Positions 5,963 through 24,059 of a stretch of 24,059 nt of DNA are shown in pieces. The stretch's first letter is position 1. The number at the start of each line of letters is the position of its first letter. A model generated the notes under the pieces. That model made no database searches. It worked only from the letters and a program-made list of their open reading frames with translations, and had not been told where the DNA came from. Source of the stretch: a virus. Location: UHGV virus genome UHGV-0237381. One strand, written 5' to 3'. The translations under genes and the position numbers were made by a program.

Positions 5963-6250
5963 ATGGAAACAGAACCAAGAATGGAAATTGTAATGAATGC
6001 AGACAAAGACCCCAAAAATGTTGCATTGGGTGTTGATAGATTGCGAAGCCTTATTGAAAGGATTGAAAGATTGCAAGAAGAAGTGAAGGAAATTCAATCA
6101 GACATCAAGGATATATTTGCAGAAGCAAAGGCGGTTGGTTATGATGTGAAAATCATGCGGGAAGTGATAAAATTGCGAAAAATGAATGCAGTTGACCGAG
6201 ATGAACAAGAATATTTGATTGATACATATAAAAGGGCTTTAGGGCTATGA
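5963..6250 (+). CDS. gapR: GapR-like nucleoid-associated protein (DUF2312)
   Basis: DRLRSLIERIERLQEEVKEIQSDIKDIFAEAKAVGYDVKIMREVIKLRKM...EQEYLIDTYKRALG is a near-consensus DUF2312 sequence. Confidence 0.92.
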   Translation: METEPRMEIVMNADKDPKNVALGVDRLRSLIERIERLQEEVKEIQSDIKDIFAEAKAVGYDVKIMREVIKLRKMNAVDRDEQEYLIDTYKRALGL

Positions 6251-8965: not shown

Positions 8966-9917
8966 TATATTCAAAACAATGACAGGGGGAACAGTTGTCA
9001 CAGACATTGCGAACCCATACAAATTGAAGGTTGATGAAACAACCTTTGTTGATTTCCAAACTTCCCTTTTATATCAAAAAATCCTGAAAAGATGCTATGC
9101 AAAAAGCATGGGCATGACAGATGAACAAGCCCGCAACCTTTGGGATAGTGTTGAACTTTCAAATGCACAATATGGAACAATCACCCGAATTGCTGATGCA
9201 ATGACAGCCAAGAAAGAATTGATTTTGGTGAATGATAGCGGTGTTGTAAGGGTTGCAGATTACCAAGAAGGGGAAGAAATAAAAAAAGCCTATGCAGAAG
9301 GAAAAAAGGCAAATGGTGTTTATATGAACTTTCAAAAATACACCATGACCGATATTATCAAAATTTACATGGGACTTGTTTTTGATATTATGGGCGGGGC
9401 AAAAGTGAACCTTGGATTGGCAAAGGCACTTCAATTGAAGATTGCTGATTTGCGAAAAACAATTTCAACATCTTCTTCAGATGATGCCAAAAGCCAAGCT
9501 GAAACAATTGCAAAGGCTTTGAAAGATGGAAAAAGCACTTGTCTTGATGCAGGTGACAGCATTGTGACAACCCCGCTTCAAACCCAACCGATAACAGACG
9601 GATTGAAGCTTGTTTATGGTTGTTTGGCTTCCTTGATTGGTGTTTCAACATCATTTGTTGCAGGAGAATTGACTTCAGGCATGGCAGTCACAGGGGAAGC
9701 AGATGTGAATGCAAATGAAGATGGTATCAAAGATTTCTTCAATTCTGTTTTCAAACCTATACATGACAAACTTTTTGACATTCAGTTGAAGTTCAAAACA
9801 GACAATTGGCGAAAGTTCAAAGAATTTGCACAAGTCATTCCCTATGTGGAAAGTTCAATGTTCATAACTGATGAACAAAAGAAAGAATTTTTTGAATATT
9901 TATTCGGGGGTGATTGA
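8952..9917 (+). CDS. Portal protein (short, 321 aa)
   Basis: Position after terL, helical content, 'LASLIGVSTSFVAGE' portal-like segment. Confidence 0.7.
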   Translation: MAFHNIFKTMTGGTVVTDIANPYKLKVDETTFVDFQTSLLYQKILKRCYAKSMGMTDEQARNLWDSVELSNAQYGTITRIADAMTAKKELILVNDSGVVRVADYQEGEEIKKAYAEGKKANGVYMNFQKYTMTDIIKIYMGLVFDIMGGAKVNLGLAKALQLKIADLRKTISTSSSDDAKSQAETIAKALKDGKSTCLDAGDSIVTTPLQTQPITDGLKLVYGCLASLIGVSTSFVAGELTSGMAVTGEADVNANEDGIKDFFNSVFKPIHDKLFDIQLKFKTDNWRKFKEFAQVIPYVESSMFITDEQKKEFFEYLFGGD

Positions 9918-10438
9918 TGATATTCAATTCTGTTCAATATTTGAAATTATTGTTTGGGGCGGACTTTTTCAAAGGGCGGTTGCTGAATTCAGACCTTGAA
10001 TTGAAACAACTTGCCCTTCAATCAATTTTAAAATCAACAACACTTTCCAAAAGAGAAATTGAAGCGACTGTTTATAAAGTTGTTGACAATTACGAAGAAA
10101 AAATGAAAAAATTGAAGAAAGAGAAAGTCAAGGCATTCAAGGCAAAAGCTTTGAACAATGAAGTTCTTTTGAAAGATAGGATTGAAAACCTTGTGTTGTG
10201 GAATGAAGTTCAGAACCTAAAAAAAGAACATGAAGGGCAATTTTACAGATGGTTGCCAAGTTCTTCAAAAATCCCCGACCCTGAACATCAACTTCTTTAT
10301 GGAAAGATTTTCAAAGTTGGGGAAGGGGACAAGGAAGGCAACATGCCTTCTGAAAGATATGGTTGCAAATGTGGAATTCAATTTTTGACAGCCAAGGAAG
10401 CCAAAGAAATGAAAGGAAGGTTAAAACATGGCATTTAG
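9914..10438 (+). CDS. MuF-like head morphogenesis protein
   Basis: YRW...DPEH..LYGKIF...PSERYGCKC motif, located after the portal gene. Confidence 0.65.
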   Translation: MMIFNSVQYLKLLFGADFFKGRLLNSDLELKQLALQSILKSTTLSKREIEATVYKVVDNYEEKMKKLKKEKVKAFKAKALNNEVLLKDRIENLVLWNEVQNLKKEHEGQFYRWLPSSSKIPDPEHQLLYGKIFKVGEGDKEGNMPSERYGCKCGIQFLTAKEAKEMKGRLKHGI

Positions 10439-11045
10439 TGAAGAACAAGAAGCCCAAATTTTGGATATGATGGGCAAAATGGGTGAATTCTTGACCAAGC
10501 AAAGCGAAAGCAAGGAAGAAAAGAAAGAACCTGAAAAAAAAGATGAAAGATTGCTTGATGAAGCAAAAAAGAACATGGAAGAAAAGAGCAATCAAGAAGA
10601 AAGCCAAGCCAACATTGAAAAGGCATTGGATTTCAACATGAAGATTTCAACATTTGCGGAAAAATACAAAGATATTTTGCCCGCTTCCATCAAGTCGGTT
10701 ATTGACACCGCAAATGGCAAAAGCTACACTTCAGCAATTGCCAAAGCTGATGAAATGCGAAAAGCAATTCTTGAAGCATATTTGGAAGTTCAATCAAATG
10801 TTGACAGCCTTCCCGATGGCATGAAAGCCAAGGCAAATGCTTATAAAGCATTGACAGAAGATGCAAAAAGAGCAAAGTCGGGGCAATATTGGGAAATTGT
10901 GGAAGTTGGTGCAGAACTTCAGACTTCAAAAAAGAGGGCTGAAGCAGTAAACAAAGCCAATGGAAGCGGAAACGGAAGCGGGGAAGATAATGCCTTCAGG
11001 GCAAAATTCCTTGCATTGGGTGATAAATACAAAAGAAAGGAATAG
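10428..11045 (+). CDS. Capsid scaffolding protein
   Basis: Charged helical protein with a Gly/Ser/Asn linker near the C-terminus, in the head module. Confidence 0.55.
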   Translation: MAFSEEQEAQILDMMGKMGEFLTKQSESKEEKKEPEKKDERLLDEAKKNMEEKSNQEESQANIEKALDFNMKISTFAEKYKDILPASIKSVIDTANGKSYTSAIAKADEMRKAILEAYLEVQSNVDSLPDGMKAKANAYKALTEDAKRAKSGQYWEIVEVGAELQTSKKRAEAVNKANGSGNGSGEDNAFRAKFLALGDKYKRKE

Positions 11046-11048
11046 TAA

Positions 11049-11459
11049 ATGGCTACATTATTGGGAACACCTTATGAAAGGGGAAAATCTGATGTTATTG
11101 TTAGCAGAAAGGTTGATGCACCTATTGAAGAAGGTTTATTTGTTGCAGATGCAGGCGAAGGAAAAGTTGCAGTAAACGGCGAAACCCCTTTTGGCATCAT
11201 GGGACAAAATGAAATTGTTGGTTGTTCAGTTGTTGTTGCGGGAATGAAAGTATATGTTCAAGCTGATGCAGGTTGCAACCCAACAGTTGGCGGACAAGTT
11301 CATGTGACCGCAGAAGGCAAAGTTTCACATGAAGGTGGAACAGCAATCAATGCAACATTCGCTGAAGGTGAATGCAAAGAAAATGGTGTCACAGACAACA
11401 CCGCAGTAAAAGCAACAAACCGCAGATGTGTTGCAATCAACATGGTTGGCGGTTGCTAA
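11049..11459 (+). CDS. Head decoration/cement protein
   Basis: Small Gly/Val-rich beta protein ('PTVGGQVHVTAEGKVS') between scaffold and capsid genes. Confidence 0.6.
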   Translation: MATLLGTPYERGKSDVIVSRKVDAPIEEGLFVADAGEGKVAVNGETPFGIMGQNEIVGCSVVVAGMKVYVQADAGCNPTVGGQVHVTAEGKVSHEGGTAINATFAEGECKENGVTDNTAVKATNRRCVAINMVGGC

Positions 11460-11614
11460 TGGCAAAACAGGATTTGAAAGAACCTGAAGAAATAAAAGAA
11501 CCCGAATTTCAGGTTCAAGCGAGTGAAAGCGAAGAGGTGAAAACCGAGCCAAAGCCCGCAAAAAAAGAAAAAATTGTTTTAAAGAAATTTTCTAAATTTA
11601 TGAAAGGAAAATAA
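11459..11614 (+). CDS. 51-aa charged, probably disordered head-module protein
   Basis: TAATG overlap; MAKQDLKEPEEIKEPE...KKFSKFMKGK. Confidence 0.55.
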   Translation: MAKQDLKEPEEIKEPEFQVQASESEEVKTEPKPAKKEKIVLKKFSKFMKGK

Positions 11615-11615
11615 A

Positions 11616-12485
11616 ATGGCTACTGATTTAAGAACAGGTATTCTTGAAAAAGAAGAATATTTGAACAATGCCCGCATCATGTATTCACCTGTTATTTTGG
11701 CATTACAAAATAAAGAATTTCACAATGTTGATATTTCAAAAGTGAAATTCAAAGAATATAATGTTGAAGATGATTCAATTGTTGCGGAAGTTCTAACAAA
11801 AGAAGCAACAGAAAAAGCACACATCAAGGCAAGAGGTGTTGAAAAAACATTCAACATCTTTGTTAAGGGTGCAAAATTCATCAAGTCATTGGCTGATGGT
11901 GCAGTTGTTGACCTTCAAAAAATCCACAACCGAGTTTTAAGAGATTACATGATAATCTTTGACAAAGATGGTTTACATGGTGACGGTGGAAACAATGGTT
12001 TGTTAAAATCAAATGACCCATATTATGTGACAAATGCAAATCATCAAATTCCCGCTGTTGATGGAAATGGCTTCAACCGAGTTCAAAACATCAATGCTTT
12101 GATGAACACATTAAAACTTCAAGTTGGTGAAAAAACTTCTTCTTCTGATGTGAAAATCTTTGTTTATGGTGCGGATTTAATTAAATTCTTGGGTTCAATT
12201 ACACAAGACAATGAAACAACAGTTCGTGACATTCTCAAAAAGGCATATCCTGAAGCAATGTTCATTGAAATCCCTTCATTGGCTTTGAATTCTGATGATG
12301 GCAATGGTTTTGTTGTGGTTTCTGATGATGCAACAACACTTCATTTGACTACTGAACCAACTATCAAAAAACAAGGCGAGAATGAAGAAAATGAATATTA
12401 CTATGCAAACTATGTGACAGGTTCTTTGCAGGTTACACCTGATTTGGAAGGTGCAATCATCAAACAGCCAATCACTTTTGCATAA
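11616..12485 (+). CDS. Major capsid protein (HK97 fold inferred)
   Basis: 289 aa, strong SD GAAAGGA, 'DKDGLHGDGGNNGLL' spine-helix-end motif, synteny. Confidence 0.7.
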   Translation: MATDLRTGILEKEEYLNNARIMYSPVILALQNKEFHNVDISKVKFKEYNVEDDSIVAEVLTKEATEKAHIKARGVEKTFNIFVKGAKFIKSLADGAVVDLQKIHNRVLRDYMIIFDKDGLHGDGGNNGLLKSNDPYYVTNANHQIPAVDGNGFNRVQNINALMNTLKLQVGEKTSSSDVKIFVYGADLIKFLGSITQDNETTVRDILKKAYPEAMFIEIPSLALNSDDGNGFVVVSDDATTLHLTTEPTIKKQGENEENEYYYANYVTGSLQVTPDLEGAIIKQPITFA

Positions 12486-12496
12486 GGGGGTGAACC

Positions 12497-12760
12497 ATGG
12501 CTGATGAAATCAGAAAATATGCAAACCAAGTGTTGCAAAGCATAAGTCAAGCAACATTGACAGATGAAGAAGCAATCCTTCTTCCTGAAGTCGATCAAGC
12601 TAACCTGATTTTGGAAGCCTTGGCAAAAGTTATGAACCAAAGAGGGGCAACAGGCAACGGCTTCAAGAAATTGCGAGCCTTTGCCACCCTCAACGGCATA
12701 GAGATTGGAACGAAGCAAAACAAAAGAAGTGATATTTTGATTGGCATGGTGATTGAGTGA
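12497..12760 (+). CDS. Putative head-tail adaptor
   Basis: Position after the capsid gene, small and helical. Confidence 0.4.
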   Translation: MADEIRKYANQVLQSISQATLTDEEAILLPEVDQANLILEALAKVMNQRGATGNGFKKLRAFATLNGIEIGTKQNKRSDILIGMVIE

Positions 12761-13227
12761 TGGAGTTGAAAATTCAAAATCTTTCAAAAAAGTTGGCTTT
12801 CAAGCTTGATAAATACCAAGTTCAAGTCGGTTTGTTGGAAGATAAGAAAAGAAAACAGCCAAAATTCGGAGAATATAAAAGCTATGCAGGAAAAACACTT
12901 TTGAGGGAAGGCAAAGTTTCAACAGGTGCTTCAATGGTTGAAGTTGCTGAATATCTTGACCGCAAATATAAATGGTTGCGGAAGCCATTCTTGATAAGAA
13001 ACAATAAAGAAGTTGTTTTGGTTTTGAATGACATTGTGAAAGATATGAATGGGCAGGATTTGAAACAGCGGATTTTGAACGGATTTCAAGCTGTTGTCAG
13101 AAATCCAATATTGCGGGGCGAGTATGGAAAGAACACAAGCCCATGGGCAAAGAAAAAAGGCTTCAATCAATTACTAATGATGACAGGACAATTTTTCAAA
13201 AATGTGAAGGCGAGGTTTAAAAAATAA
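12757..13227 (+). CDS. Putative neck/tail completion protein (HK97 gp10-like)
   Basis: Basic protein with VQVG, RKPFL and 'NTSPWAKKKGFNQLLMMTGQF' motifs. Confidence 0.55.
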   Translation: MMELKIQNLSKKLAFKLDKYQVQVGLLEDKKRKQPKFGEYKSYAGKTLLREGKVSTGASMVEVAEYLDRKYKWLRKPFLIRNNKEVVLVLNDIVKDMNGQDLKQRILNGFQAVVRNPILRGEYGKNTSPWAKKKGFNQLLMMTGQFFKNVKARFKK

Positions 13228-13661
13228 TGTTCAGACCAAAACTTGAAGAATGCTTGAAAGGCATATTTGAACTTGAAAAAGTTATTTATGGCAACATTGG
13301 TGAAGGAAGTGAACAAAATGCCATCTATGTTTCCATTGACCAAATAAAGACAAGCCCTGCTGATGGGGAATGTTATTTCAGGGTAAGAGGGACACTTGGC
13401 ATCAATGCTGAAGCGGTGAATTATAAATATGGTTATTTGAAGGAAAGATGCAGGCTTGCAGACAAGAACTTGACCAAATATTTTGGCTTTGCTTCAAATG
13501 ACAACAATGTGAATTTTTCGGTTTATGATGATTTATTTGTCAAGCCAACATTAGATTTCACATTCAGGATTTCAATTCCTTGGAATCCACCCGCAGGGAA
13601 AATGACTTTTGAAAAGTTGAATTGGGTTAAAAATATTATAAACAGGATAAAGGGAATATAA
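13227..13661 (+). CDS. Putative tail terminator
   Basis: 144 aa, immediately before the sheath gene. Confidence 0.45.
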   Translation: MFRPKLEECLKGIFELEKVIYGNIGEGSEQNAIYVSIDQIKTSPADGECYFRVRGTLGINAEAVNYKYGYLKERCRLADKNLTKYFGFASNDNNVNFSVYDDLFVKPTLDFTFRISIPWNPPAGKMTFEKLNWVKNIINRIKGI

Positions 13662-13662
13662 A

Positions 13663-14592
13663 ATGAAAGATGTTTTATTGGAATATGTGATGAAGGTTGA
13701 TGCCTATGCACCGACCCCATCAGCTTCAACAGCATACATTCGCAAGGTGCTTTGTGTTGTTAAGCCATTGCCCGAAGGGATAACAGGAACAATTTCAGAA
13801 TGCACCACAAAATCAGAAATTCAAGCATTGACAAGTGCAAATTGTCATGTGTTGTTGGAAGCGGGGCTTCCTTCTGTTTATGTGTTGCCAACAAACACAT
13901 TGGATATTGCGGATATATTAGAAGCAACAGACAAGAAGTTCTTCACAATCTTGGTTGATGGTGCATTCACAAATGAAGAAATGAATGCCCTTGATGATGG
14001 TGAATTCAATGGTGTTATTGGTTGGAGTGTAGAAAACAGAGAGCAAGCCAAAAATTGGGGCTATGGAAACAGCAATGTTGGATTTTATGACCTTGATGTG
14101 AATGGTTCGCAAAATATGTATTATGCATTTGGTAAATTGCTTTCAGCTAATACATGGAAAAATCAACAATATATTGAAATGCCTTATGGTTCGGGTATTA
14201 GTTCAATCAATCAAGCTGAATTGATGTTTGAAGACAGCATTTCTTTTGTGTTGACTTCTGATGAATACCAAAACAGACTTGCTTTGTTTGCATCAAACCG
14301 CAGGGCAATTGTTGCACCTTATGTTTATGAAGAATTGACATTGAAGCTTCAATCAAAAGCCCTTCAATATATTTCATTGAACCAACCAAACTATACAGAA
14401 GCAGAAGCAAGCCTATTGGAAGACGCATTGCAAGGTGTTGTTGATGGTTATGTTGAACAAGGCATCATCACACATGGAAAAGTTGTTGTGAGTTTGACAG
14501 ATGAACAATTTGTTGCACAAGCTTCAATCAATATTCCTGAACCAAAAGCATTGTGGAGAATAAAAGCAACAATGAAGCAAGGGGAGATTTAA
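13663..14592 (+). CDS. Tail sheath protein (minimal, 309 aa)
   Basis: C-terminal 'PNYTEAEASLLEDALQGVVDGYVEQGII...ALWRIKATM' resembles the sheath C-terminal domain. Confidence 0.7.
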   Translation: MKDVLLEYVMKVDAYAPTPSASTAYIRKVLCVVKPLPEGITGTISECTTKSEIQALTSANCHVLLEAGLPSVYVLPTNTLDIADILEATDKKFFTILVDGAFTNEEMNALDDGEFNGVIGWSVENREQAKNWGYGNSNVGFYDLDVNGSQNMYYAFGKLLSANTWKNQQYIEMPYGSGISSINQAELMFEDSISFVLTSDEYQNRLALFASNRRAIVAPYVYEELTLKLQSKALQYISLNQPNYTEAEASLLEDALQGVVDGYVEQGIITHGKVVVSLTDEQFVAQASINIPEPKALWRIKATMKQGEI

Positions 14593-14595
14593 GAG

Positions 14596-15021
14596 ATGTT
14601 ACAGATTTGGAATTGTGAAGGCGGTTTCACTTATAATGGGGTGAACTATAAATTCAAGGATTTGGATTCTGTTGCTTATACATACAGCAAGAAAAATCAT
14701 TTGATTAGAGGTGCAAACGCAACAAACAAAATGGGTATTTTAAGCCAAGAAGGCGGAAAGACACCTGATGTTGTTGAATATAGTGTTGTTGATTGCACAA
14801 AAGCAATTTATTCACTTTTGCTTCAGTTATTTGAGGAAAGAAAAAGAATTGATGCTTTCTTCATTGACCGCAACACAGGTGAATATATAATCTTCAAAGA
14901 TGCTATAATCAGAGATAAACCAAGACAAGCAAATGTTGGTGAAGATGACACAAGCCATTCTTTCATGTTTGCGGTTGAAAGTTTCAATGTGACAGAAAAA
15001 GTGATTGAAGATGAAGCATAA
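14596..15021 (+). CDS. Tail tube protein
   Basis: 141 aa, beta-rich, directly after the sheath gene. Confidence 0.65.
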   Translation: MLQIWNCEGGFTYNGVNYKFKDLDSVAYTYSKKNHLIRGANATNKMGILSQEGGKTPDVVEYSVVDCTKAIYSLLLQLFEERKRIDAFFIDRNTGEYIIFKDAIIRDKPRQANVGEDDTSHSFMFAVESFNVTEKVIEDEA

Positions 15022-15373
15022 TATCACAAAAGATGACCTGAAGGGGCTGAAAAGCCCCGCAGGCTTTCAAGTTTTATTCACACTTTTGATTGGCTTTTAT
15101 TCAGTACCTGCATTTGGTGCATCAACTTCATTTGATGAATTTGTGAAGGATTTTGAAAAGATGCCAAGGGAAGACCGCAGAAGAATTCTTGCAAAGTCGG
15201 TTTGCATTACTCAATTGACCGAAAGTGAATATATGAATGTTCTATGCTTTGCGAGAGATGAAAACGGCATTCCCTATTCAAAAGAGAATGTGGAAAACTT
15301 GATCTATGATGAAATCATGGAAATTGTTGTTGATGTTTGCTTGGCTTATTCTGATTGCAAGGTTTTTTTTTGA
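15011..15373 (+). CDS. Tail assembly chaperone (gpG-like)
   Basis: Between tube and tape-measure genes; ends GTT TTT TTT TGA. Confidence 0.7.
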   Translation: MKHNITKDDLKGLKSPAGFQVLFTLLIGFYSVPAFGASTSFDEFVKDFEKMPREDRRRILAKSVCITQLTESEYMNVLCFARDENGIPYSKENVENLIYDEIMEIVVDVCLAYSDCKVFF

Positions 15374-15552
15374 CAGATGACCAAATAAAGCAATTGGGAA
15401 AATTTTCAGTTGACCTTTTTCAACAAGCTAATGTATTATTAAAAACAAGAAGTGATTTCACCTTTGAAGAACTTTTGAACACAGCATTTTTGGAAGCATA
15501 CAATGGCAGACAGTTATATTTTAAATATAAAACCGACAATTTCCGCAAGTGA
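15364..15552 (+). CDS. -1 frameshift extension of the tail chaperone (gpT-like)
   Basis: Slippery T TTT TTT at 15364-15370. The -1 frame is open (FFLTDDQIK...) to 15552 and has no good start of its own. Confidence 0.75.
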   Translation, partial: FFLTDDQIKQLGKFSVDLFQQANVLLKTRSDFTFEELLNTAFLEAYNGRQLYFKYKTDNFRK

Positions 15553-16462
15553 TGGAAGAAAGCTTGAAAGTGATTTAAATGGAAGGTTTGCAAGGGTTGC
15601 CAAGAAATTTGGCGGTGCTTTGCGAACAGTTGGTTCAAAATTAAGGGGAATTATTGCGGGCGGTGCGGTTGCAGGTATTTCAGCAATGATGACAAACCCC
15701 ATTGACAGCCTGAATTCAACACTTGATGAAACTTTAAGAAGATATGATGACATAAGTTCAAGGGCAAAACAACTTGGTGTTTCTTCAGGACAGCTTTTCC
15801 AAGCAACAGCAATTGCAAAAAGTGCAGGCATTCAGGAAGAAGACTTTCGGGCAATGTTGACAGCTTATGCGGTGAAAGTTGGTGAAGCAAAGGCGGGACA
15901 AGACCAAATGTTGAAAGAATTTGTGAACGAAGATTTGTTGACAGGCTTTTTCAAAATGGTTCGCAGTTTGCGAGAATTAAGCCCTGAACAAAGAGCATAT
16001 TTTGGGGCAAAAATTCTTGGTGAAGATGATGTTGCCAAATTGGCGGAGTTAATCAACACAGATGTTCAAGAGCGACACAGACAACTTTTTGGAAAAACCA
16101 CAGCGGAACAAACAACAAGGGCAATTGAAAAGCTTGCAGGCACAGAAGGCAAGCAATCAATCATGAGGGGAAGACTTGATGTTGAAAATCTTTTGGCAAA
16201 ATCACAAAACATCACAAATGAAACAATCAAAATGCAAAGCGAGCTTGAAAGAAAGAAGCAGGAAGCGGAAAATATAAATTTAAGCAATTATGAAATGTTT
16301 GCCCGCATGCAACAAGCGACAGAAGAAAGCAAAATCATTCTTGCGGATATGCAAGCAAAGATTGCACCATTACTTGAAAAAAGTGTTGGTATTCTTGAAA
16401 GATTATATAATTGGTTAATAAATTCCAAACTTGGAAAATGGGCAGGGGGGGTTTTTAAATAA
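15503..16462 (+). CDS. Tape measure protein (very short, 319 aa)
   Basis: Ala/Gly-rich helical protein, 'SRAKQLGVSSGQL...AKSAGI', follows the chaperone pair. Confidence 0.75.
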   Translation: MADSYILNIKPTISASDGRKLESDLNGRFARVAKKFGGALRTVGSKLRGIIAGGAVAGISAMMTNPIDSLNSTLDETLRRYDDISSRAKQLGVSSGQLFQATAIAKSAGIQEEDFRAMLTAYAVKVGEAKAGQDQMLKEFVNEDLLTGFFKMVRSLRELSPEQRAYFGAKILGEDDVAKLAELINTDVQERHRQLFGKTTAEQTTRAIEKLAGTEGKQSIMRGRLDVENLLAKSQNITNETIKMQSELERKKQEAENINLSNYEMFARMQQATEESKIILADMQAKIAPLLEKSVGILERLYNWLINSKLGKWAGGVFK

Positions 16463-16995
16463 TGTTAGGCGGAACAGCACCTGTTTTGGTATTTAATTTT
16501 GCAAGCATTAGTTCAGCATCTATTTTGAACAAATTGGGCTTCAATATAGGGGAAGACAGCATATTCAATCTTGACATTCCGATTGTTTCAATTCCTGTTT
16601 ATTTAGATGAAAAATTGACAGGAATTCTTCTTGATGACCATGAAAGAAGCATCAATATTGAATTTGAACAAGACGAAAACCACAACTATGAAAGGGTGAT
16701 TTCTTCAGATGTGAAAGTCACATTGGTTGCACAAAAAGACAATGTTGCATTTCAAGGATTTCTTGCTTTATTTGAACAAATATTGAAGCGGGTTAATTAT
16801 CAAGCATATAAAATATATTTTTATTATGATGATGTTTTCATGATCAACGCATCTTTGAAAGATTTTGCAGTGACAACAAGGGAAAACACAGACACAAGGG
16901 TTGTGACCTTTACTTTGACAAACAGAAGTGAAGAATCAAAAGTTATTGAGTCGGTTTTGAAAAAATTCGGTGAAACTTTGAAAGTGTTTAAGTGA
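16462..16995 (+). CDS. Baseplate/tail tube initiator-like protein
   Basis: First gene after the tape measure, beta-rich, tube-like size. Confidence 0.5.
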   Translation: MLGGTAPVLVFNFASISSASILNKLGFNIGEDSIFNLDIPIVSIPVYLDEKLTGILLDDHERSINIEFEQDENHNYERVISSDVKVTLVAQKDNVAFQGFLALFEQILKRVNYQAYKIYFYYDDVFMINASLKDFAVTTRENTDTRVVTFTLTNRSEESKVIESVLKKFGETLKVFK

Positions 16996-17258
16996 TGGCG
17001 GTTAATTGGTATAATATAGGCAATAAAGCCAAATTTGAAGCAAAAGGCATTCCGCAGGAAGTCTTTACAAAAGAATTGGAAGATTTGGGGCAACAAGAAA
17101 TTGTTTTCATAAAGGGATTTTCTTTTTCGGTGATATTTATGGGCGAGATGTTGACACCTTCTTTGAATGGGCGAAACCCATTTGATAAAAACAAAAATGC
17201 GTGTTATGTTGACCCTGAAACTTCAGATGTATGGGTTGGATATGAAACTAATATGTGA
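16992..17258 (+). CDS. Small baseplate protein
   Basis: Synteny and translational coupling. Confidence 0.4.
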   Translation: MMAVNWYNIGNKAKFEAKGIPQEVFTKELEDLGQQEIVFIKGFSFSVIFMGEMLTPSLNGRNPFDKNKNACYVDPETSDVWVGYETNM

Positions 17259-17691
17259 AAATGGCTTTTATAAGTTTTTTCCTGATTTTGTTGGGGAAAT
17301 TAAACTTTGGGAAAATAAGAATGGCACAAAGCTTTTCAAGGTTCGTGACTTTTGGACATTTGAAAGCCTTGCAAACTTCCCAAACTATTCATTCACAGGA
17401 CAATTGGTTTATGGTATTATTCCCGCAGTTGTAAACTATGCGGGAAGCCCTGAAGAAGTTTTATCAAAAAATAAATTGACATATAATGTAAAACTTGGAA
17501 CAATAACACCAAGGGCATTGGTTATTTTGCAAAGGTTGAATTATGCAAATGGGGCATATTTGACCTTCCCAAATATCCCTCAAGCCTTTGCCCTTGACCA
17601 AGATTTGCAACAGATTTCAGGATTTGAAGCATTTGTTGATGTAAGGTTGAACACCTATAAAATTGAAAGGCTTTTATATGAAAATATTTGA
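17242..17691 (+). CDS. Baseplate protein in the hub position (149 aa)
   Basis: Start MKLICENG at 17242; assignment by synteny only. Confidence 0.35.
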   Translation: MKLICENGFYKFFPDFVGEIKLWENKNGTKLFKVRDFWTFESLANFPNYSFTGQLVYGIIPAVVNYAGSPEEVLSKNKLTYNVKLGTITPRALVILQRLNYANGAYLTFPNIPQAFALDQDLQQISGFEAFVDVRLNTYKIERLLYENI

Positions 17692-17992
17692 AGCAAAAAG
17701 AACAGGTGGAGTGATAACAGCAGACAGCGGGGTTGTGGTTGATTGCCCTATTTTGGGCGAAGGCGGGGACAGTGAAGGTTTCATCATCATGGCTGAAGGT
17801 GAACTTGTTTATATACCAAAAAGAAGCCCTGATTTATCCACAACATTGCAATTATTATCCACAAGTTTATTCACAATTGCTTCAGGCATCATGCAAGCTA
17901 ATATGGGCGGGGATATTACAAGCCCAACTTTTGCACAAGAATTGACAGATTTGAAAAAACAGGTTGATGAATTAAGGGGAAAATTGAAATGA
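17678..17992 (+). CDS. Putative baseplate spike/tip protein (104 aa)
   Basis: Short beta N-terminus and helical hairpin C-terminus, located before the gp25-like gene. Confidence 0.35.
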   Translation: MKIFEAKRTGGVITADSGVVVDCPILGEGGDSEGFIIMAEGELVYIPKRSPDLSTTLQLLSTSLFTIASGIMQANMGGDITSPTFAQELTDLKKQVDELRGKLK

Positions 17993-18294
17993 TTGATGGT
18001 TTCATTGAAAATGGAGAGTTCAAGACAAGTGACACAATTGTTTTCAAGGCGAAAAACATCTTGGAAACACAGGAAGGTTCTTTGAACTATGCCCCTGAAT
18101 TGGGGATTGATTTAAAAAGATTTCTTGACCCTGATGTGAAGATACAAAACAGGACTTTTGAAGCATACAGCATTCAAAAGTTGGGTGAACAAGGGGTGAA
18201 CCCCATTGAATTGATTGTAAACAAGGAAACTTTCCGCCAAGTGTTTGACTATACAGTTGCGGAAGCAGATAAGGAAGGATTGATTGCACAATGA
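17989..18294 (+). CDS. gp25-like baseplate wedge / sheath initiator
   Basis: LETQEGSLNYAPELGID motif, immediately before the baseplate J gene. Confidence 0.7.
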   Translation: MIDGFIENGEFKTSDTIVFKAKNILETQEGSLNYAPELGIDLKRFLDPDVKIQNRTFEAYSIQKLGEQGVNPIELIVNKETFRQVFDYTVAEADKEGLIAQ

Positions 18295-19106
18295 CATACA
18301 CAGTGACAAACGGATATTCACCAAGAAGCTATGAAACAATTTTGGCAGAATGTGTTCAGGTTGTGAATGAACAATTTGGGACAAGCTACACTTCCCAAAG
18401 CTTCACAGGAACGAACCTTTGGAAATTCTTATATGCAACCATTCAAGGCTTGATGACTGTTGAAAATAACATTGCAGAACTTGGGGTGAAACTTCAAGAC
18501 TATATCAGAACACAAAATGAAAGTTTAATCATTCCCCGCAGTTCTTATGATGGCATCATGCAGATAATCAAAGATGAATTGGGGCTTGTTTCTTCAATAA
18601 AGGTGGTTGAAAGTGCAAGTGAAGCGGGACAAATACATCTTGCAATTGATATTGACAGGAATTCTGAAGATTATGCAGACCGCAAAGCAAAAATATTCAA
18701 AATTCTTCATGAAAACATGGGTGCGGGTTTGTTTTATAATGGAACAGAAAAAGGAACAGTCAATGCATCAAATGGGCAAGTTTTCAACTATGCATTTGAC
18801 CTTCCAACTGAAACATCTTTGAAAATAAAAATTCAAGTTAGGGTTTCTGAAAACACAACATTGTTTGTGGAAACACCAAATGAAATTAAAAACAAGTTTC
18901 TTGCAAATTTTGCGAAGTTATACCGATTGGGCTATGACTTTGAACCGCAAATTTTCTTATGTAGGGATAGGGATTTGCCTTTTGCTTCAGAAATAAATAT
19001 AAGCTATTCAACAAGCGGTTCTGATTATAAAACAGCAATTCTTGAAGCAATGTATGATGAAAAATTCACAATTGACCCAAACAATGTGGAAGTTGAGGTG
19101 ATTTGA
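18291..19106 (+). CDS. Baseplate J-like wedge protein (short)
   Basis: N-terminal 'GYSPRSYETIL', synteny; 271 aa. Confidence 0.65.
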   Translation: MTYTVTNGYSPRSYETILAECVQVVNEQFGTSYTSQSFTGTNLWKFLYATIQGLMTVENNIAELGVKLQDYIRTQNESLIIPRSSYDGIMQIIKDELGLVSSIKVVESASEAGQIHLAIDIDRNSEDYADRKAKIFKILHENMGAGLFYNGTEKGTVNASNGQVFNYAFDLPTETSLKIKIQVRVSENTTLFVETPNEIKNKFLANFAKLYRLGYDFEPQIFLCRDRDLPFASEINISYSTSGSDYKTAILEAMYDEKFTIDPNNVEVEVI

Positions 19107-19630
19107 TGGTTCAATTTGTAACAGGTGAGCAAGAAGAAAAAAGATTTTGGGACATATATTCCAAACTTGCCCAACAAACCTTGCTTGATATTGAAAACTA
19201 TTTCAAAACAGCATATCAAAGCCCCGAACTTGGGCGAATAATCTATGAAGAACAAGTAATGCCTATTTATAAAGTTTTGGAAAAATCATTGTTTGTGAAG
19301 GCTTATTCACAGATTTTGGAAGGTGAAAAAACTTTGGGTTCTGTTGAAGCTTATTTGAAGATTTTATATGCAATATTTGGAAAAGAAGCAAAAATCACAA
19401 TAACACAAGAACCATTGCATTTGCAAATTGATATTGTTGCACCTGTTCAAAAATTTTATTTATGGATTACAAAATCAAAAAAACAAATTGTCACTAAAGA
19501 TGGAAAGGCAATCAAATTCAAACAAATACTTGCAGAAGTGACCGACAGGGAATTGCTTCAGATTTTAAGGGCAACGACAAAGGCGGGAACTTTTGTTGAA
19601 TTCACTTTAAACAAAGAAGGGGCGATATAA
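19106..19630 (+). CDS. Baseplate wedge protein (gpI-like)
   Basis: 'GSVEAYLKILYAIFG' and C-terminal 'LRATTKAGTFVEF'. Confidence 0.6.
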   Translation: MVQFVTGEQEEKRFWDIYSKLAQQTLLDIENYFKTAYQSPELGRIIYEEQVMPIYKVLEKSLFVKAYSQILEGEKTLGSVEAYLKILYAIFGKEAKITITQEPLHLQIDIVAPVQKFYLWITKSKKQIVTKDGKAIKFKQILAEVTDRELLQILRATTKAGTFVEFTLNKEGAI

Positions 19631-20712
19631 TGGCAACAGAAGAAACCACAATTTCAGAACTTGAACTTGCTGATGAATTATTGGCAGACATGAATATTGC
19701 TGTTGACACAGCAAGCGAAACAAGGGCAATCACTTTGAAACAATTGAAAGCTTGGCTTGGTTCTTCCTTGCCAACAGGATTTGTTGTTGCTTCAGTTGGA
19801 AAAATAAATGATGAAAGGCTCACTTTGCTTGATGGAAAAACTTTATCAAGGGTGGGAACTTATGAAGCATTTTGCAACAAGGTTGTTGCTGAAGTTAAGG
19901 CAGGAAGATGGACTTCATGCACAGAAGACCAATTCAATCAAGAAGTTTCACAAACAGGACAATGCAATAAATTTGTTGTTACAAATGATTATGTGAGAAT
20001 TCCAAAATTTGGCAATTGTATGTATTCAGCATTGATTGATGGAAAAATTCCAGTTGCGGGTAATGGCAATGGAATAGGTTTATACAACGGAAACGGATAT
20101 GGTTCTTGGATGGTGACAGGACCAACAGCATCTATTGGTAATGTACCTCGTATTGCGAAAGATAAATATGGCACAGCCGGCACTGACATGGGAGTAGGTA
20201 ATGGAACAGAAGGTATAGACAAAAGATTAGTAGGTTTGACAACAGATGCTAGTAAATCAGGTATTGAAGGAACACTTTCAACAAACCCAATGACAATTTA
20301 TTATTACATGGTTGTTTCAACTGAAGGGCAAACCGCAAGTGTTGATGTTGATATAAATAAGGTTTATGAGGATTTAGAGCTAAAAGCAAATTCAAATTTA
20401 TCAAATATTGCTTCAAATATTGACTATGTTGTTGAAACATATCGTAGCGGGGCTAGTTGGTATAGAAAATATAAAAGCGGTTGGGTAGAGCAAGGGGGAA
20501 CTGTTTCAAGTAATCAAAACACAGATACTACATTGACGTTTCTAAAAAAATTTATAGATACAAATTATACATTTACAGCATGCCATGCAAAGAGTACAGG
20601 TTATACTAATGGGGCAAATGTAAACTATTTTAATAAAAAAAATGTGTCAATTACGGTTTATCAATGTGATGGCAATGGGTTTTCTTGGAATGCTTGCGGG
20701 AAAGGTGCGTAA
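19630..20712 (+). CDS. Tail fibre / receptor-binding protein
   Basis: N-terminal 'TTISELELA', collar-like 'LPTGFVV...LLDGKTLSR', C-terminal 'DYVVETYRSGASWYRKYKSGWVEQGG' fibre-tip domain. Confidence 0.85.
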   Translation: MATEETTISELELADELLADMNIAVDTASETRAITLKQLKAWLGSSLPTGFVVASVGKINDERLTLLDGKTLSRVGTYEAFCNKVVAEVKAGRWTSCTEDQFNQEVSQTGQCNKFVVTNDYVRIPKFGNCMYSALIDGKIPVAGNGNGIGLYNGNGYGSWMVTGPTASIGNVPRIAKDKYGTAGTDMGVGNGTEGIDKRLVGLTTDASKSGIEGTLSTNPMTIYYYMVVSTEGQTASVDVDINKVYEDLELKANSNLSNIASNIDYVVETYRSGASWYRKYKSGWVEQGGTVSSNQNTDTTLTFLKKFIDTNYTFTACHAKSTGYTNGANVNYFNKKNVSITVYQCDGNGFSWNACGKGA

Positions 20713-20724
20713 AAGGGGGTAAAA

Positions 20725-21075
20725 ATGTTTAAAATTGGCGATAAATTAAATGAAGAAAACTACACACAAGGGGCGATTTGGTGCAATGAAAATGGTTGTG
20801 TTATAAACCCCGAAACATTAGTGATTGAAAAAATACCTGAACCAACACAAGAAGAATTGGTTGTTCGGAAAAGAGCGGACAGAAACCGCCTTTTGGAAGA
20901 TTCAGACAAAAGAATGCTTCCCGATTTTCCTATTTCAGCGGAAGAAAAGGAACTTTGGCTTTTATATAGGCAATATTTGCGAAACATAACCAAAGAACCT
21001 GAATTTCCAAATGTTGATGTTTTAAGTTTTGAAAATTGGCTTGGGCAGATACATTCAAAAGAACCTATATTGTAA
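20725..21075 (+). CDS. Tail fibre assembly chaperone
   Basis: RADRNRLLEDSD...PDFP...YRQYLRNITKEPEFP. Confidence 0.85.
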   Translation: MFKIGDKLNEENYTQGAIWCNENGCVINPETLVIEKIPEPTQEELVVRKRADRNRLLEDSDKRMLPDFPISAEEKELWLLYRQYLRNITKEPEFPNVDVLSFENWLGQIHSKEPIL

Positions 21076-21085
21076 GGAGTGAGAA

Positions 21086-21328
21086 ATGCAAGAGGGAAAA
21101 AACATTTCGGGTAGAAATGGTAGAGGAAGCCACAAAGTCGGCAATGTGAATGTTCAAATTGGTGACAAAGAAGGCATCTATGCAGGAAGTGCAAGCAATA
21201 TGGCAAGATTGTTCATTCTTTGCAATGTGATTTGGGCAATTGTTTTTGGCTTGTTTGCTTATGCAAAAGGTATTGAAACAGGAAACCTTGAAACAAGGGT
21301 TGAAATTTTGGAAAGAATGCATAAATGA
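21086..21328 (+). CDS. Single-pass membrane protein (accessory cassette gene 1)
   Basis: TM segment RLFILCNVIWAIVFGLFAYA. SD AAGGAG. Confidence 0.65.
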   Translation: MQEGKNISGRNGRGSHKVGNVNVQIGDKEGIYAGSASNMARLFILCNVIWAIVFGLFAYAKGIETGNLETRVEILERMHK

Positions 21329-21597
21329 AATATCAAGAGGGTTTGAAGGAAACAAAGAAATTCTTGAAAACCACACCTGAACCGCAGATGCGGGAATTGT
21401 GCAACCAAGCAGGCTTGATCGAAAAGGAAACAGAAATGATTGTTCAAAGATTCCGCAAGGGCAGACCAAGGCTTCATGCTTCCTATGATTTGGGAATGAG
21501 TGAAAGCAGGCATTCAATAAAGATGACCTTGATTTTGAACATTCTGAAGAAAGTTCTTGTTCAATTGGGATTTATAGACGAAACATTTTTGAAATAA
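21325..21597 (+). CDS. Sigma70-region-4/LuxR-like HTH protein (cassette gene 2)
   Basis: AGLIEKETEMIVQRFRKGRPRLHASYDLGMSESRHS. Confidence 0.6.
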   Translation: MKYQEGLKETKKFLKTTPEPQMRELCNQAGLIEKETEMIVQRFRKGRPRLHASYDLGMSESRHSIKMTLILNILKKVLVQLGFIDETFLK

Positions 21598-21627
21598 ATT
21601 CAAAACAACATTTTTAAAAACTTATGG

Positions 21628-21659
21628 CATGGTTAATTCCGAAAGGGGAATTGACCATG
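21628..21659 (+). promoter_or_regulatory. 13-bp RNA hairpin sequestering the SD region and AUG of a 34-aa ORF
   Basis: CATGGTTAATTCC-gaaagg-GGAATTGACCATG (one G-U pair). The 3' arm ends in the ATG at 21657. Confidence 0.7.
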
Positions 21660-21761
21660 TTTTATTTTGACCGCTTGAAAATTTACATGATATTGCAGGA
21701 AGTGAGCAAAGAAACAGGCATTCCCTTCAACATTTTATTGGAAGGAATAAAGAATGTTTAA
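21657..21761 (+). CDS. 34-aa leader ORF (cassette gene 3; not in ORF track)
   Basis: MFYFDRLKIYMILQEVSKETGIPFNILLEGIKNV*. SD GAAAGGGG; overlaps the next ATG. Confidence 0.55.
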   Translation: MFYFDRLKIYMILQEVSKETGIPFNILLEGIKNV

Positions 21762-22185
21762 TTTCAACCCATATTTAAACTATCAACAACGATTGATGCA
21801 AATGGAACAGCAACAGAACCTTCAACCTGTTCAACAAATGCAACCACAAATGCAAGCATTGTTTGTTTCCAAGGCAGATGATTTGAAAAACTTTTCTATC
21901 ATGCCAAATGTTTTGTATATAGGCATCAATCAGGCTTCAAAAGAAATATATGTGCGACAAATGAACAATGACGGCATCACCGAATTGAACACATATTCTT
22001 TGGCAAGCGAAAACAAAGAAAAAGGCACACTTGAAAAGATACTTGAACGAATAGACAACCTTGAATTGAGTTTGAAAGGAAAAGGCAATGAATGGAATGA
22101 TAAACCAAATGTTGGGGCAAATGCTTCAAGGAAGATTTCAAAATCACCCCATGATGGGAATGTTTCAACAAATGATGCAGAATAA
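21754..22185 (+). CDS. Protein with Gln/Met/Pro-rich low-complexity N-terminus (cassette gene 4)
   Basis: NPYLNYQQRLMQMEQQQNLQPVQQMQPQMQ, then a small beta domain 'IYVRQMNNDG' and a short coiled coil. Confidence 0.75.
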   Translation: MFNFNPYLNYQQRLMQMEQQQNLQPVQQMQPQMQALFVSKADDLKNFSIMPNVLYIGINQASKEIYVRQMNNDGITELNTYSLASENKEKGTLEKILERIDNLELSLKGKGNEWNDKPNVGANASRKISKSPHDGNVSTNDAE

Positions 22186-22312
22186 AACCCCACAACAGAA
22201 AATTCAAACCCTTATAAATTCCGCACAATCAAGAGGGTTTGACATCAACAAAAAATGTTTCACCGAGCAGGATTTGCGACAGCTTGGTTTGAATATTCCC
22301 CGCCAAGGGTGA
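22088..22312 (+). CDS. Met/Gln/Asn-rich small helical protein (cassette gene 5)
   Basis: MINQMLGQMLQGRFQNHPMMGMFQQMMQNKTPQQ...QSRGFD. SD AAAGG. Confidence 0.7.
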   Translation: MNGMINQMLGQMLQGRFQNHPMMGMFQQMMQNKTPQQKIQTLINSAQSRGFDINKKCFTEQDLRQLGLNIPRQG

Positions 22313-22365
22313 TTTCTTCCTTTTGGAATGATTGTTTTAAATTTATTTATTGAAAGGAAAAGAAA

Positions 22366-22980
22366 ATGGCAGAAGGAAATTATAGTCTTTCGGATATTGC
22401 TTCAGTAATGGGAAGACATGATGGCTTTGACAATGACAATTGGATTTGGATTTTGTTTTTGTTAATCTTTGGCAATGGTTATGGATATGGAAACAATGGT
22501 GCATTGACAAGGGCAGAAATGACAGATGGTTTCAACAATCAATCTGTTTTGCGTAAGCTTGACGGCATAACACAGGGTTTATGTGATGGATTTTATTCAC
22601 AAAATACAACAATGCTTCAAGGCTTCAACACACTTGGTTCACAAATTTCAAATTGTTGTTGCGAAACTAACCGAAACATTGATGCGGTTCGCTATGAAAA
22701 CGCAAAAAACACTTGTGATATTGTGCGAGCAATTGAAAAAGATGGAGATGCAACAAGAGCTTTAATCAATGCAAACACAATGCAAGCATTGCGAGATAAA
22801 GTTGCAGAACAAAGCCAAGCAATTCAATCAAGGGATTTTCAATTGTCACAGTTGGCACAAAATGAAACTTTAATCAGCAGATTACAGCCAACACCAAAAC
22901 CCGCATATTTGACTTGTTCACCATATCAAGCACAAATGTTTCCATTTGGCAACTATGGTTGCGGTTCTTGCGGTTATTAG
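22366..22980 (+). CDS. Gly-rich TM / CCC coiled-coil protein (cassette gene 6)
   Basis: YSLSDIA, WIWILFLLIFG-NGYGYGNNG, QISNCCCETNRNID, TCDI, LRDK, P.PAY, terminal GCGSCG. Strong SD GAAAGGA. Confidence 0.85.
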   Translation: MAEGNYSLSDIASVMGRHDGFDNDNWIWILFLLIFGNGYGYGNNGALTRAEMTDGFNNQSVLRKLDGITQGLCDGFYSQNTTMLQGFNTLGSQISNCCCETNRNIDAVRYENAKNTCDIVRAIEKDGDATRALINANTMQALRDKVAEQSQAIQSRDFQLSQLAQNETLISRLQPTPKPAYLTCSPYQAQMFPFGNYGCGSCGY

Positions 22981-22987
22981 TTAAAAC

Positions 22988-23007
22988 AGGGCGGGCAACC
23001 CCCGCCC
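22988..23007 (+). other. Intergenic GC hairpin after the CCC gene
   Basis: GGGCGGG-caacc-CCCGCCC, with only a short ATCTTT tail. Confidence 0.55.
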
Positions 23008-23027
23008 ATCTTTGAAAGGAAAAAAAG

Positions 23028-23369
23028 ATGAATTGTTGTAATCCTTATTTTCACAAGTCAACCGCATTGACAGCAAGTGACACAGCGGTTGAAATTACAA
23101 TCACAAACAGCACAAACATTTCAAGCCTTGATTGTTTTGAATTTGTTTTGTGTCAATGCCCTTCTGAAGTTGTAACAGGTGAACCCTTGCCCTTCACAAT
23201 CAATGTGAACGGAACAGCAGTCAACCTTTTGAATAAATACAGCTTGCCAATATACACAAACAGACTAAAACCCCGCAAAAGATATTTTGGGGCTTATGTT
23301 GCGGAAGGTGGAACACCTTATGTGATTTTGTTCAATACACCTTGCGACCCACAATTTGCGACAGCATAG
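23028..23369 (+). CDS. Cys-rich beta-sandwich-like protein (cassette gene 7)
   Basis: MNCC..., FVLCQCP, PFTINVNGTAVNLLNK, RKRY. Confidence 0.7.
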   Translation: MNCCNPYFHKSTALTASDTAVEITITNSTNISSLDCFEFVLCQCPSEVVTGEPLPFTINVNGTAVNLLNKYSLPIYTNRLKPRKRYFGAYVAEGGTPYVILFNTPCDPQFATA

Positions 23370-23376
23370 GGGGTGT

Positions 23377-23856
23377 ATGATGGAAAAATACAAAGAAATA
23401 GTTGAAAAGGTTTCAAGCAAGGGTGACAAGTCAGACATGGAACTTCTTGCCTGCATGATTGGTAAATTCATTGATGAGATGGAAGAAAGACACCCTGAAA
23501 AGGTTCAAAATTTCATGTTAGCAATGGAAGATGAATTTTCCTTCTTCCTAACCGACAGGGAAGCCAAAGCGGTTGTGGATAAAATGGAAAATGAAAGCAA
23601 GGAACACCCCAAAGGTGAAAAGTGGAACAAAGAAACTGTTTTGAAGGTTTTTGCAGATGCAGGACACCCAACATCAAATGTCCGATATTCTGAAAATGGT
23701 GTATATTGGGCAATGAATATGGTATATTCAGATTTCTTTCCCATGTATAAAGATGATGTTTCAAAATATGTTGAACATGCATATTTGTTCTTGAATGATA
23801 AAGACTATTCAGGGAAATATTCAAAAGAAAAATGGTATGCCAAAAAAAGAGCTTGA
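23377..23856 (+). CDS. Helical protein of unknown function (cassette gene 8)
   Basis: LTDREAKAVVDKMEN...GEKW...YWAMNMVYSDF...FLNDKD. SD AGGGGG. Confidence 0.75.
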   Translation: MMEKYKEIVEKVSSKGDKSDMELLACMIGKFIDEMEERHPEKVQNFMLAMEDEFSFFLTDREAKAVVDKMENESKEHPKGEKWNKETVLKVFADAGHPTSNVRYSENGVYWAMNMVYSDFFPMYKDDVSKYVEHAYLFLNDKDYSGKYSKEKWYAKKRA

Positions 23857-23882
23857 TTTTGTGAAAAATATCTTCTTATAAT
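23853..23882 (+). promoter_or_regulatory. Candidate promoter for the lysis cassette
   Basis: TTGATT, 18 bp, TATAAT. Confidence 0.5.
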
Positions 23883-23898
23883 AAAGGGGAAATATTAA

Positions 23899-24059
23899 AT
23901 GCTAAAGGGGGCTTGGAAAATAATGCAGGGTGACACATTAAACACAACATTTGCAAGTTTGTTTGCAACATTTTGTTCTTTTATTATTGCCCATTTGCCT
24001 GAATTTCAAGCCTTCATCACTTTTTCATTGACTGTTGTTTTCTTGGTTTATAAAATACG
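23899..24059 (+). CDS. Holin-like gene, 5' part (continues to 64 across the junction)
   Basis: (MLKGAWKI)MQGDTLNTTFASLFATFCSFIIAHLPEFQAFITFSLTVVFLVYKIR: two hydrophobic segments, directly upstream of the endolysin once the genome is circularised. Confidence 0.65.
   Translation, partial: MLKGAWKIMQGDTLNTTFASLFATFCSFIIAHLPEFQAFITFSLTVVFLVYKI

Follow-up and report, generated by a model that had tools for sequence, protein, structure and literature searches.

A gene module recurrent in gut phages, with a predicted trimeric coiled-coil protein and a fibre-like beta domain

In the Bacillus exosporium, a Cys-rich self-assembling scaffold (ExsY/CotY) and a trimeric TNF-like knob are made without export (BclA, BxpB). 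Tetrabrachion, the S-layer stalk of Staphylothermus, is a membrane-anchored hendecad coiled coil with partner proteins, phage tail fibres have an elongated trimeric shaft and a beta knob, and class I viral fusion proteins have a long trimeric coil behind a hydrophobic segment rich in Gly. The module considered here occupies positions 21086..23856 (2,771 bases, 11.5%) of the window, that is, of the whole 24,059-nt virus genome UHGV-0237381, whose close relatives are mostly represented by contigs of 24-25 kb. Its likeness to the exosporium is a works-like analogy: the module has no collagen repeat (GXX repeats are absent from all eight proteins), its CCC protein g6 is a predicted helical coil with no significant match among PDB sequences, it is carried by phages of non-sporulating hosts, and the knob of the window copy is not BclA-like. 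Tetrabrachion is similar by design, but is an archaeal cell-surface tetramer and far longer.

The earlier note had described a self-contained cassette of eight genes. All eight ORFs are present on the + strand, and the motifs CCC, GCGSCG, MNCC and CQC occur in their products. None of the eight proteins matches a family of known function in Pfam, PHROG or NCBIfam; the only family matches are phrog_21718 (g4), phrog_16490/9288/8119 (g6) and DUF7841 (g8). The tail assembly chaperone proposed upstream is recovered (PF16778, E 6e-13), and the phage's own fibre candidate and chaperone lie at 19630-21075, while the downstream "holin" is holin-like only in hydrophobicity and position and has no match in the same three databases.

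The eight genes do not form a fixed unit. In 94 non-redundant loci, conservation extends over a core of five slots (21754-23856), mostly with an HTH gene in front, and the claimed recurrence of gene order holds for this core: g4 is present in 76/85 loci, the g5 type in 66/85 (including the homologous F27 type), and the knob slot is filled in 85/89. The TM-HTH pair is separable, being found 3.4 kb from the core in PMQ04. The single-TM protein g1 (80 aa, 21086..21328) is lineage-specific, and in 9/82 loci its place is taken by an unrelated TM gene. The likely HTH regulator g2 (90 aa, 21325..21597) has counterparts in 43/82 loci; three proteins in the same position match Sigma70_r4 or r4_2 above the cut-off. 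g2 itself has no Pfam HTH match, and is related to the counterpart in L081 with E 6e-10; its score against the HTH profile used is circular, g2 having been one of the seeds. The putative 34-aa ORF g3 (21657..21761), whose stop overlaps the start of g4, is also lineage-specific: it is seen only in the two closest relatives whose sequence includes this stretch, L165 and L167, and its substitutions by codon position (10/4/9 and 21/15/14) have no third-position excess, so that its coding status is uncertain.

The CCC protein g6 (204 aa, 22366..22980) is the centre of the module. It comprises a Gly-flanked hydrophobic segment (about residues 26-35), a predicted coil (61-145), a Pro/Tyr arm and a Cys-Gly tail. 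Its homologues form 3,147 clusters at 50% identity, and the CCC motif is present in 122 of 138 full-length cluster representatives. One singleton protein, encoded on a 2.9-kb contig, carries the g6 rod behind a long N-terminal region of unrelated sequence.

The proposal that g6 is a self-assembling coiled coil agrees with structure prediction of the homo-oligomer, which yielded a parallel homotrimer (ipSAE 0.65 versus 0.00 for the best control, three copies being the one number modelled). The score mark used is reached by 20/30 solved pairs and 1/23 single chains, counts that apply only roughly to three copies. Contact agreement between runs is at least 52%, and pLDDT at least 67. With a hydrophobic period of 3.66 over residues 60-146, the prediction for residues 61-145 is a hendecad coiled coil of three parallel helices, which at the standard helix rise would make a rod of about 13 nm. 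Homologues do not differ in length by steps of 7 or 11 residues, and the confident trimer contacts include nothing beyond residue 145.

The N-terminal part of g6 allows another reading, quite unlikely in our estimate, in which the module acts on the membrane of the infected cell or lysogen, serving superinfection exclusion, defence or the timing of lysis, with g7 as a sensor and g6 inserting its Gly-rich segment like a fusion peptide. As in class I fusion proteins, g6 homologues have a hydrophobic run (median 11 residues, 35% Gly behind it) followed by the predicted trimeric coil; moreover, crAss-like homologues are labelled 'spike protein/glycoprotein' in GenBank, and the module is insulated and dispensable in the manner of morons. 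However, the GenBank label is automatic, and g6 lacks a second, C-terminal membrane anchor, ending instead in the Pro/Tyr arm and Cys-Gly tail. The weak covariation (Neff 108) shows only a local hairpin of residues 160-170 with 176-191, and no sign of a six-helix or other long fold-back.

Cysteines make up 4.1% of g6 and 5.5% of window-type g7, against a background of 1.8%. In g6, C97-C99, C117, C199 and C202 are conserved in 87-99% of weighted sequences. C97 sits inside the predicted trimer core, while C73, C99 and C117 are absent from the confident trimer contacts and may therefore face outward. The Cys-Gly tail is present in 83/84 loci carrying a g7 gene and in 2/4 loci without it, and is missing in two archaeal-virus homologues, which also have no g7 match.

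The all-beta protein g7 (113 aa, 23028..23369; model pLDDT 88.9) has a fold similar to phage fibre bead or knob domains. Its model aligns with the tail-fibre bead of Pa193 gp47 (residues 240-340, PDB 9b45) over 94/113 residues at Z 5.8 and rmsd 3.2, a modest match under the tool's caution level of Z 8; the 9b45 chain is itself an AlphaFold model fitted to density, according to PMC11456595. In contrast to that bead, to which it is 12% identical, g7 stands alone as one domain and has no baseplate-binding part. Foldseek against PDB gave no hits at E<=0.001, and the g7 profile none of significance among PDB sequences, while in BFVD many fibre proteins match (E 5e-5 to 1e-3, TM about 0.5), including tail-fibre, collagen-fibre and adhesin-stalk proteins. 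Of the shaft-and-knob design of tail fibres, the trimer is here predicted and the knob modestly matched.

These fold matches would suit an optional virion appendage, a head or collar fibre binding mucus or host surfaces, as would the tail, lysis or integrase/recombinase neighbours seen in 14/29 sampled loci and the singleton joining the g6 rod to another N-terminal part. We consider such an appendage rather improbable: a single N-terminus would need to fit virions as unrelated as those of crAss-like phages, siphoviruses and the present 24-kb phage, the g6 N-terminus is a membrane-type segment rather than a docking domain, the other neighbours vary (head, replication and other genes), and the fusion is a single sequence from a short contig.

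In other phages, the slot after g6 may hold a different beta domain. Among 89 loci, the window type is found in 49, a BclA_C-like type in 36, both in none, and neither in 4. The two families are non-homologous (hhalign 0.53%), yet each of them is similar to domains at the distal end of trimeric fibres. Five of six tested members of the second family match BclA_C, the best with E 5.7e-9 and 36.4 bits, below the 38-bit cut-off; it is this alternative knob that bears the likeness to the exosporium, window g7 having no BclA_C match at E<=0.1. The BclA_C-like domain, together with a ferritin-like protein in many module copies and the numerous Clostridia hosts, could indicate cargo remodelling the spore coat or exosporium of the host. 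As a general function this is very improbable and largely refuted: the module also occurs in crAss-like phages, in a cultured phage of Bacteroides uniformis and in the present phage with its probable alphaproteobacterial host, the window knob is of the other type, and phrog_16490 is found in 0/14 control genomes.

The last slot also has two alternative occupants, DUF7841 or the ferritin homologue F7, the latter in 18/79 loci. In the window it is the helical protein g8 (159 aa, 23377..23856; PF25223, E 1.5e-10), which has no clear known fold: the best fold match (Z 5.1) is to helical hairpins, with matches mostly covering residues 1-54 and barely the C-terminal domain, and comparison with PDB sequences gave nothing significant; neither the sequence nor the fold matches include a ferritin. 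No longer g8 forms were found among proteins of 414-2000 aa; a 294-aa crAss-like DUF7841 protein exists outside this range. F7 is homologous to prokaryotic ferritins such as PDB 3kx9 (E 4.4e-6 to archaeal ferritin), but its first ferroxidase ligands are altered (E19 to Q, Y26 to H).

F7 brings in an intracellular metal/redox sink, in which membrane-tethered rods with Cys rings and tails would bind Fe or Zn together with the ferritin-like or DUF7841 partner and shield the anaerobic host, or the infected cell, against oxygen. We regard it as unlikely. C97 in the predicted core could form a Cys3 site, the module has promoter signals of its own ahead of g4, and RNA data hint at its expression without structural genes. 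Against this stand the changed F7 ligands, the lack of profile similarity between window g8 and F7 (hhalign 0.29%), and the cultured phage phiCP26F, which has naturally lost the core yet retains the ferritin gene; the fibre-type knob is also left unexplained.

Two further core proteins precede g6. In g4 (143 aa, 21754..22185), a Q/P-rich N-terminus is followed by a conserved middle domain and a C-terminal coiled-coil-like segment; its profile has no significant relative among PDB sequences, and it is likely an assembly partner. The Met/Gln/Asn-rich helical protein g5 (74 aa, 22088..22312), with NP motifs, is likely a helper or chaperone. The Q/N/M richness, for which prion-like scaffolds had been suggested, occurs in proteins with conserved ordered cores. 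A relation of g5 to TAL repeats was rejected, as the PDB sequence matches had no passing stretch.

The regulatory spacer and hairpins that had been proposed are upheld in part. Terminator-like hairpins exceed chance (9 observed versus 2.7 +/- 1.7), while promoter-like matches do not (12 versus 10.1 +/- 3.2). The best hairpins, on the + strand, are one of 15 pairs with a T tail at 21626-21661, where it overlaps the g3 start and its RBS, and a GC-rich one of 7 pairs at 22989-23007, between g6 and g7, which would favour g6 mRNA over g7 mRNA. At z<=-2, a hairpin precedes g4 in 32/79 loci and follows g6 in 52/91, compared with 4/94 inside g6. Direct repeats of 10-12 bp before g4 reach p<=0.05 in 10/36 spacers and are absent from the window spacer. 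On 20400-24059 Rfam gave nothing (best E 0.25); in 12 loci it found a single tRNA.

The module was found, as had been claimed, in phages of Bacillota and Bacteroidota, including cultured Clostridium and Bacteroides phages; in C3_41T2LP, which infects B. uniformis, g6 is accompanied by a g7-like gene and DUF7841. The CCC gene is present in two archaeal-virus records. The natural deletion in phiCP26F marks the module as accessory. The host of the window phage is probably a gut alphaproteobacterium, as previously suggested, its GapR being 70% identical to a chromosomal GapR from a gut alphaproteobacterial MAG. Of the suggested cross-phylum transfer, the multi-phylum spread is seen, but the most similar cassettes come from contigs assigned to bins of other gut alphaproteobacteria, so that the window copy is not evidently a fresh import from another phylum. 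The contigs G092:C20 and G182:C12, in the stretches compared, share only g6 among window proteins and may be misbinned, hence MAG labels are not taken as proof of host. Near-relative contigs in two bovine-gut RNA runs of one study, found with the cassette stretch as the query and possibly containing DNA, cover most of g4-g8 and only scraps of structural genes, a hint that the module functions in living cells. Another raw RNA run, X21, gave poly-T scraps only. ESM Atlas matches were only to unnamed phage clusters. A search of the openly accessible literature, main texts only, yielded no description of the module and no virion proteome of a phage bearing it; proteomics supplements on crAss-like phages may bear on its presence in virions.

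No evident export signal is seen by eye in the partner proteins, and the design is the same in Gram-positive and Gram-negative hosts; the module should therefore work either at the inner face of the membrane or once the cell has lysed. The reading we prefer, at somewhat less than an even chance, is a rod-and-knob assembly built in the cytoplasm and cross-linking after lysis. The g2 protein would drive a promoter ahead of g4, and g6, produced in excess, would form a three-stranded rod with a hydrophobic anchor, likely assembled in the host cytoplasm with the aid of g4 and g5. The g7 knob likely caps the rod, docking, as we infer, on the Pro/Tyr and Cys-Gly tail of g6. After lysis, oxidation would likely cross-link the rods through the g6 cysteines, giving a layer that protects or adheres. 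Cys clusters in an anoxic cytoplasm usually bind metal, the ferritin homologue in the last slot points to metals as well, and the RNA runs hint at activity in living cells; all three count against this reading. That the module is a portable operon shared by gut phages across several bacterial phyla, crAss-like phages included, for an oxidation-triggered coat of cross-linked rods and knobs, similar to an exosporium or occlusion body and protecting virions, or the cells they infect, on the way from one animal host to the next, is possible though doubtful; if true, this would add a new type of structure to tailed phages.

The novelty lies in the module, the window copy being one ordinary member. 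It comprises more than 3,000 clusters at 50% identity, its order is kept in phages whose gut bacterial hosts include both Gram-positives and Gram-negatives, and its g6 homologues are mislabelled as spike protein in crAss-like records. Be it a post-lysis coat or an oxygen/metal shield, the module would matter for the persistence of phages of anaerobes and for their passage between hosts.

All eight ORFs of the cassette (21086..23856, plus strand, 11.5% of the window), together with their Cys motifs and hairpins, are present at the places claimed in the earlier note. Its claim of conserved gene order in other phages also holds: the Q/P-rich g4 (21754-22185) lies upstream of the CCC protein g6 (22366-22980) in 76 of 85 loci, a gene of the M/Q/N-rich g5 type (22088-22312) in 66 of 85, and a knob gene follows g6 in 85 of 89, the counts being in-sample, as the profiles were iterated on the very loci counted. 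An HTH gene, in the window probably g2 (21325-21597) following the TM gene g1 (21086-21328), is found upstream of g6 in 43 of 82 loci. The slot after g6 (n=89) contains the window-type knob (g7, 23028-23369) in 49 loci, a BclA_C-like one in 36 and neither in 4; the two never occur together. The last slot (n=79) is occupied by DUF7841 (g8 of the window, 23377-23856) in 31 loci, a ferritin homologue in 18 and two other families in 9, with none detected in 21. Beside these ferritin homologues stands the reading of the module as an intracellular metal or redox sink, which we consider unlikely.

The sample comprised 80 IMG/VR loci, 75 GTDB loci (picked up via CCC-type patterns) and several others, 160 g6 loci being reduced to 94 non-redundant ones. 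Overall, g6 forms 7,057 clusters at 90% identity (among 7,260 candidates) and 3,147 at 50% identity, 1,779 of the latter at E<=1e-10. The module neighbours vary: when 29 loci were sampled and 85 of their 145 flanking ORFs scanned, 14 loci had a tail, lysis or integrase/recombinase gene next to the module. A small family (F23) that looks peptidase-like by eye and has a conserved Cys and a conserved His often flanks the module (L069:4978-5379, L066:4945-5313 and 17 further loci); two members tested had no Pfam match. Two g6-family sequences, P0395 and P0437, represent one possible g4-g6 fusion and one g6 rod after a 410-aa unrelated N-terminus, both singletons on short contigs that may be chimeras.

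For the homo-oligomer of g6, put forward for modelling in the earlier note, a trimer is predicted: the three-copy model has ipSAE 0.65, and the highest-scoring of three controls has 0.00. The mark used for such scores was attained by 20 of 30 solved pairs and by 1 of 23 single chains, counts that apply only roughly to three copies. The runs share at least 52% of contacts, with pLDDT of at least 67. The predicted interface is parallel and in register (residues 61-145), and the hydrophobic period of 3.66 corresponds to an 11-residue repeat. In the model C97 is inside the core, and C73, C99 and C117, outside the confident contacts, may face outward. The N-terminus contains an uncharged, Gly-rich stretch of 27 residues with acidic residues before it, and about 11 residues of this stretch form a hydrophobic run (medians, n=90). 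Such an arrangement would fit either an anchor with N-out topology or a re-entrant segment; a membrane effector is considered rather unlikely. The C-terminal Cys-Gly tail of g6 is present in 83 of 84 loci with a knob gene and in 2 of 4 without, a contrast that rests on few loci but would fit docking of the knob on the tail.

The best solved match of the confident g7 model (pLDDT 88.9) is region 240-340 of the Pa193 fibre (Z 5.8, next best 3.4), which according to PMC11456595 is one bead in a trimeric fibre. In BFVD the top five matches (TM 0.70-0.77) are uncharacterised or unnamed proteins of 110-167 aa, and many fibre proteins rank after them; a virion appendage, to which such matches could point, is nonetheless rather unlikely. 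BFVD also contains a possible fusion, with a g7-like fold inside a 294-aa crAss-like DUF7841 protein (A0A8S5LXP6). The g8 model, likewise confident (pLDDT 90.4), has no clear fold match. In its manner of working the module may be likened to exosporium scaffolds and fibres, but on the tested features it belongs neither to the exosporium system nor to class I fusion proteins, and a role as spore cargo is highly improbable. No description of the module was found in the portions of the literature searched.

Among cultured phages, the module is carried by six Clostridium perfringens phages and by B. uniformis phage C3_41T2LP, where it is rearranged. Many crAss-like records contain g6, labelled 'spike protein/glycoprotein' or 'outer capsid protein/viral fiber', and MAG bins (weak evidence) extend the list to Gastranaerophilales, Treponema, Fibrobacter and Enterousia. 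A g6 homologue lacking both tail and knob also occurs in two virus records with the label Methanomassiliicoccales, a host assignment on which the literature searched contained no paper; this is a possible sign of cross-domain spread. In these records (L162:5650-7163, vir335; L163:4659-5540, vir215) the genes after the homologue are a coiled-coil-like one and one for a large membrane protein of surface type.

The window GapR (5963-6250; E 3e-31) is 70% identical to a GapR encoded between amino-acid permease and pyruvate kinase on the chromosome of a gut alphaproteobacterial MAG. In the order of this MAG, g6 matches occur in 4 of 201 genomes, and one contig carries a close cassette (g4 49%, g5 55%); g7 at 73% is present on a contig binned as Enterousia. 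Close relatives come mainly from animal gut and faecal runs, and since their contigs are mostly 24-25 kb, the window is approximately a whole genome. It also encodes terminase, cell-wall hydrolase and an Rz-like spanin (E 2e-4); a PHROG scan of 43 ORFs gave no integrase match. The phage represents a common, unclassified small gut lineage (terminase cluster of 287 members), and most structural genes in 8952-19630, including the putative capsid (11616-12485), have no PHROG match. The tail fibre gene (19630-20712) is swapped between close relatives (L165, L167, L161 and sequencing run X3), the cassette directly behind it being retained. The 34-aa ORF g3 (21657-21761) is also found in L165 and L167, its stop there overlapping the g4 start, and not in L161; its substitutions show no coding-type bias.

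In five C. perfringens phages the flanks are about 95% identical, coverage of the CPD1 region is only 54-60% and there is no g6 match. For 17DYC, 93.95% identity to phiCP13O over 70% is reported (PMC10353432). In phiCP26F a deletion was confirmed, extending from the terminator before g4 into the gene preceding the ferritin homologue, with the TM-HTH pair and the ferritin homologue retained (L181:6005-6799). The core (g4-g8) is therefore dispensable for phage growth in culture. The remaining ferritin homologue is an orphan with altered metal ligands.

The window contains 9 terminator-like hairpins (2.7 by chance), with promoter matches not above chance. Hairpins with z<=-2 follow g6 in 52 of 91 loci, precede g4 in 32 of 79 and lie inside g6 in 4 of 94. 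Among 36 spacers before g4, 20 contain a -10-like hexamer (8.9 expected) and 10 contain 10-12-bp direct repeats, absent from the window. From these patterns we infer that g4-g8 may form a separately promoted operon with g6 in excess. In one bovine study, near-relative contigs from two RNA runs span most of 21659-23990 and only small bits of the structural region, and the same runs contain g6 pieces from several other phages, a mere hint of expression, as the runs were selected with this stretch and may contain DNA. In 18 of 92 loci (2.6 expected) the g6 stop is directly followed by a short hairpin motif of the form YYC, variable 3-4-bp stem, loop, stem, KUGAY, with the terminator-like hairpin coming after it (e.g. 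L028:6374-6404, L065:6523-6557, L135:8564-8601, L158:5544-5578). Stem covariation in this motif is circular, the pattern itself having selected it, and the motif has no Rfam match and is not found in the window.

Support for the architecture is far stronger than for the function. Two unrelated fibre-tip folds alternate behind a predicted trimeric rod, and one design lacking evident export signals is used across very different envelopes, which argues that the rod-and-knob assembly would be built in the cytoplasm and would work either at the inner membrane or following lysis. The favoured function, held tentatively, is a predicted layer of rods and knobs that would be cross-linked by oxidation once the cell is lysed.
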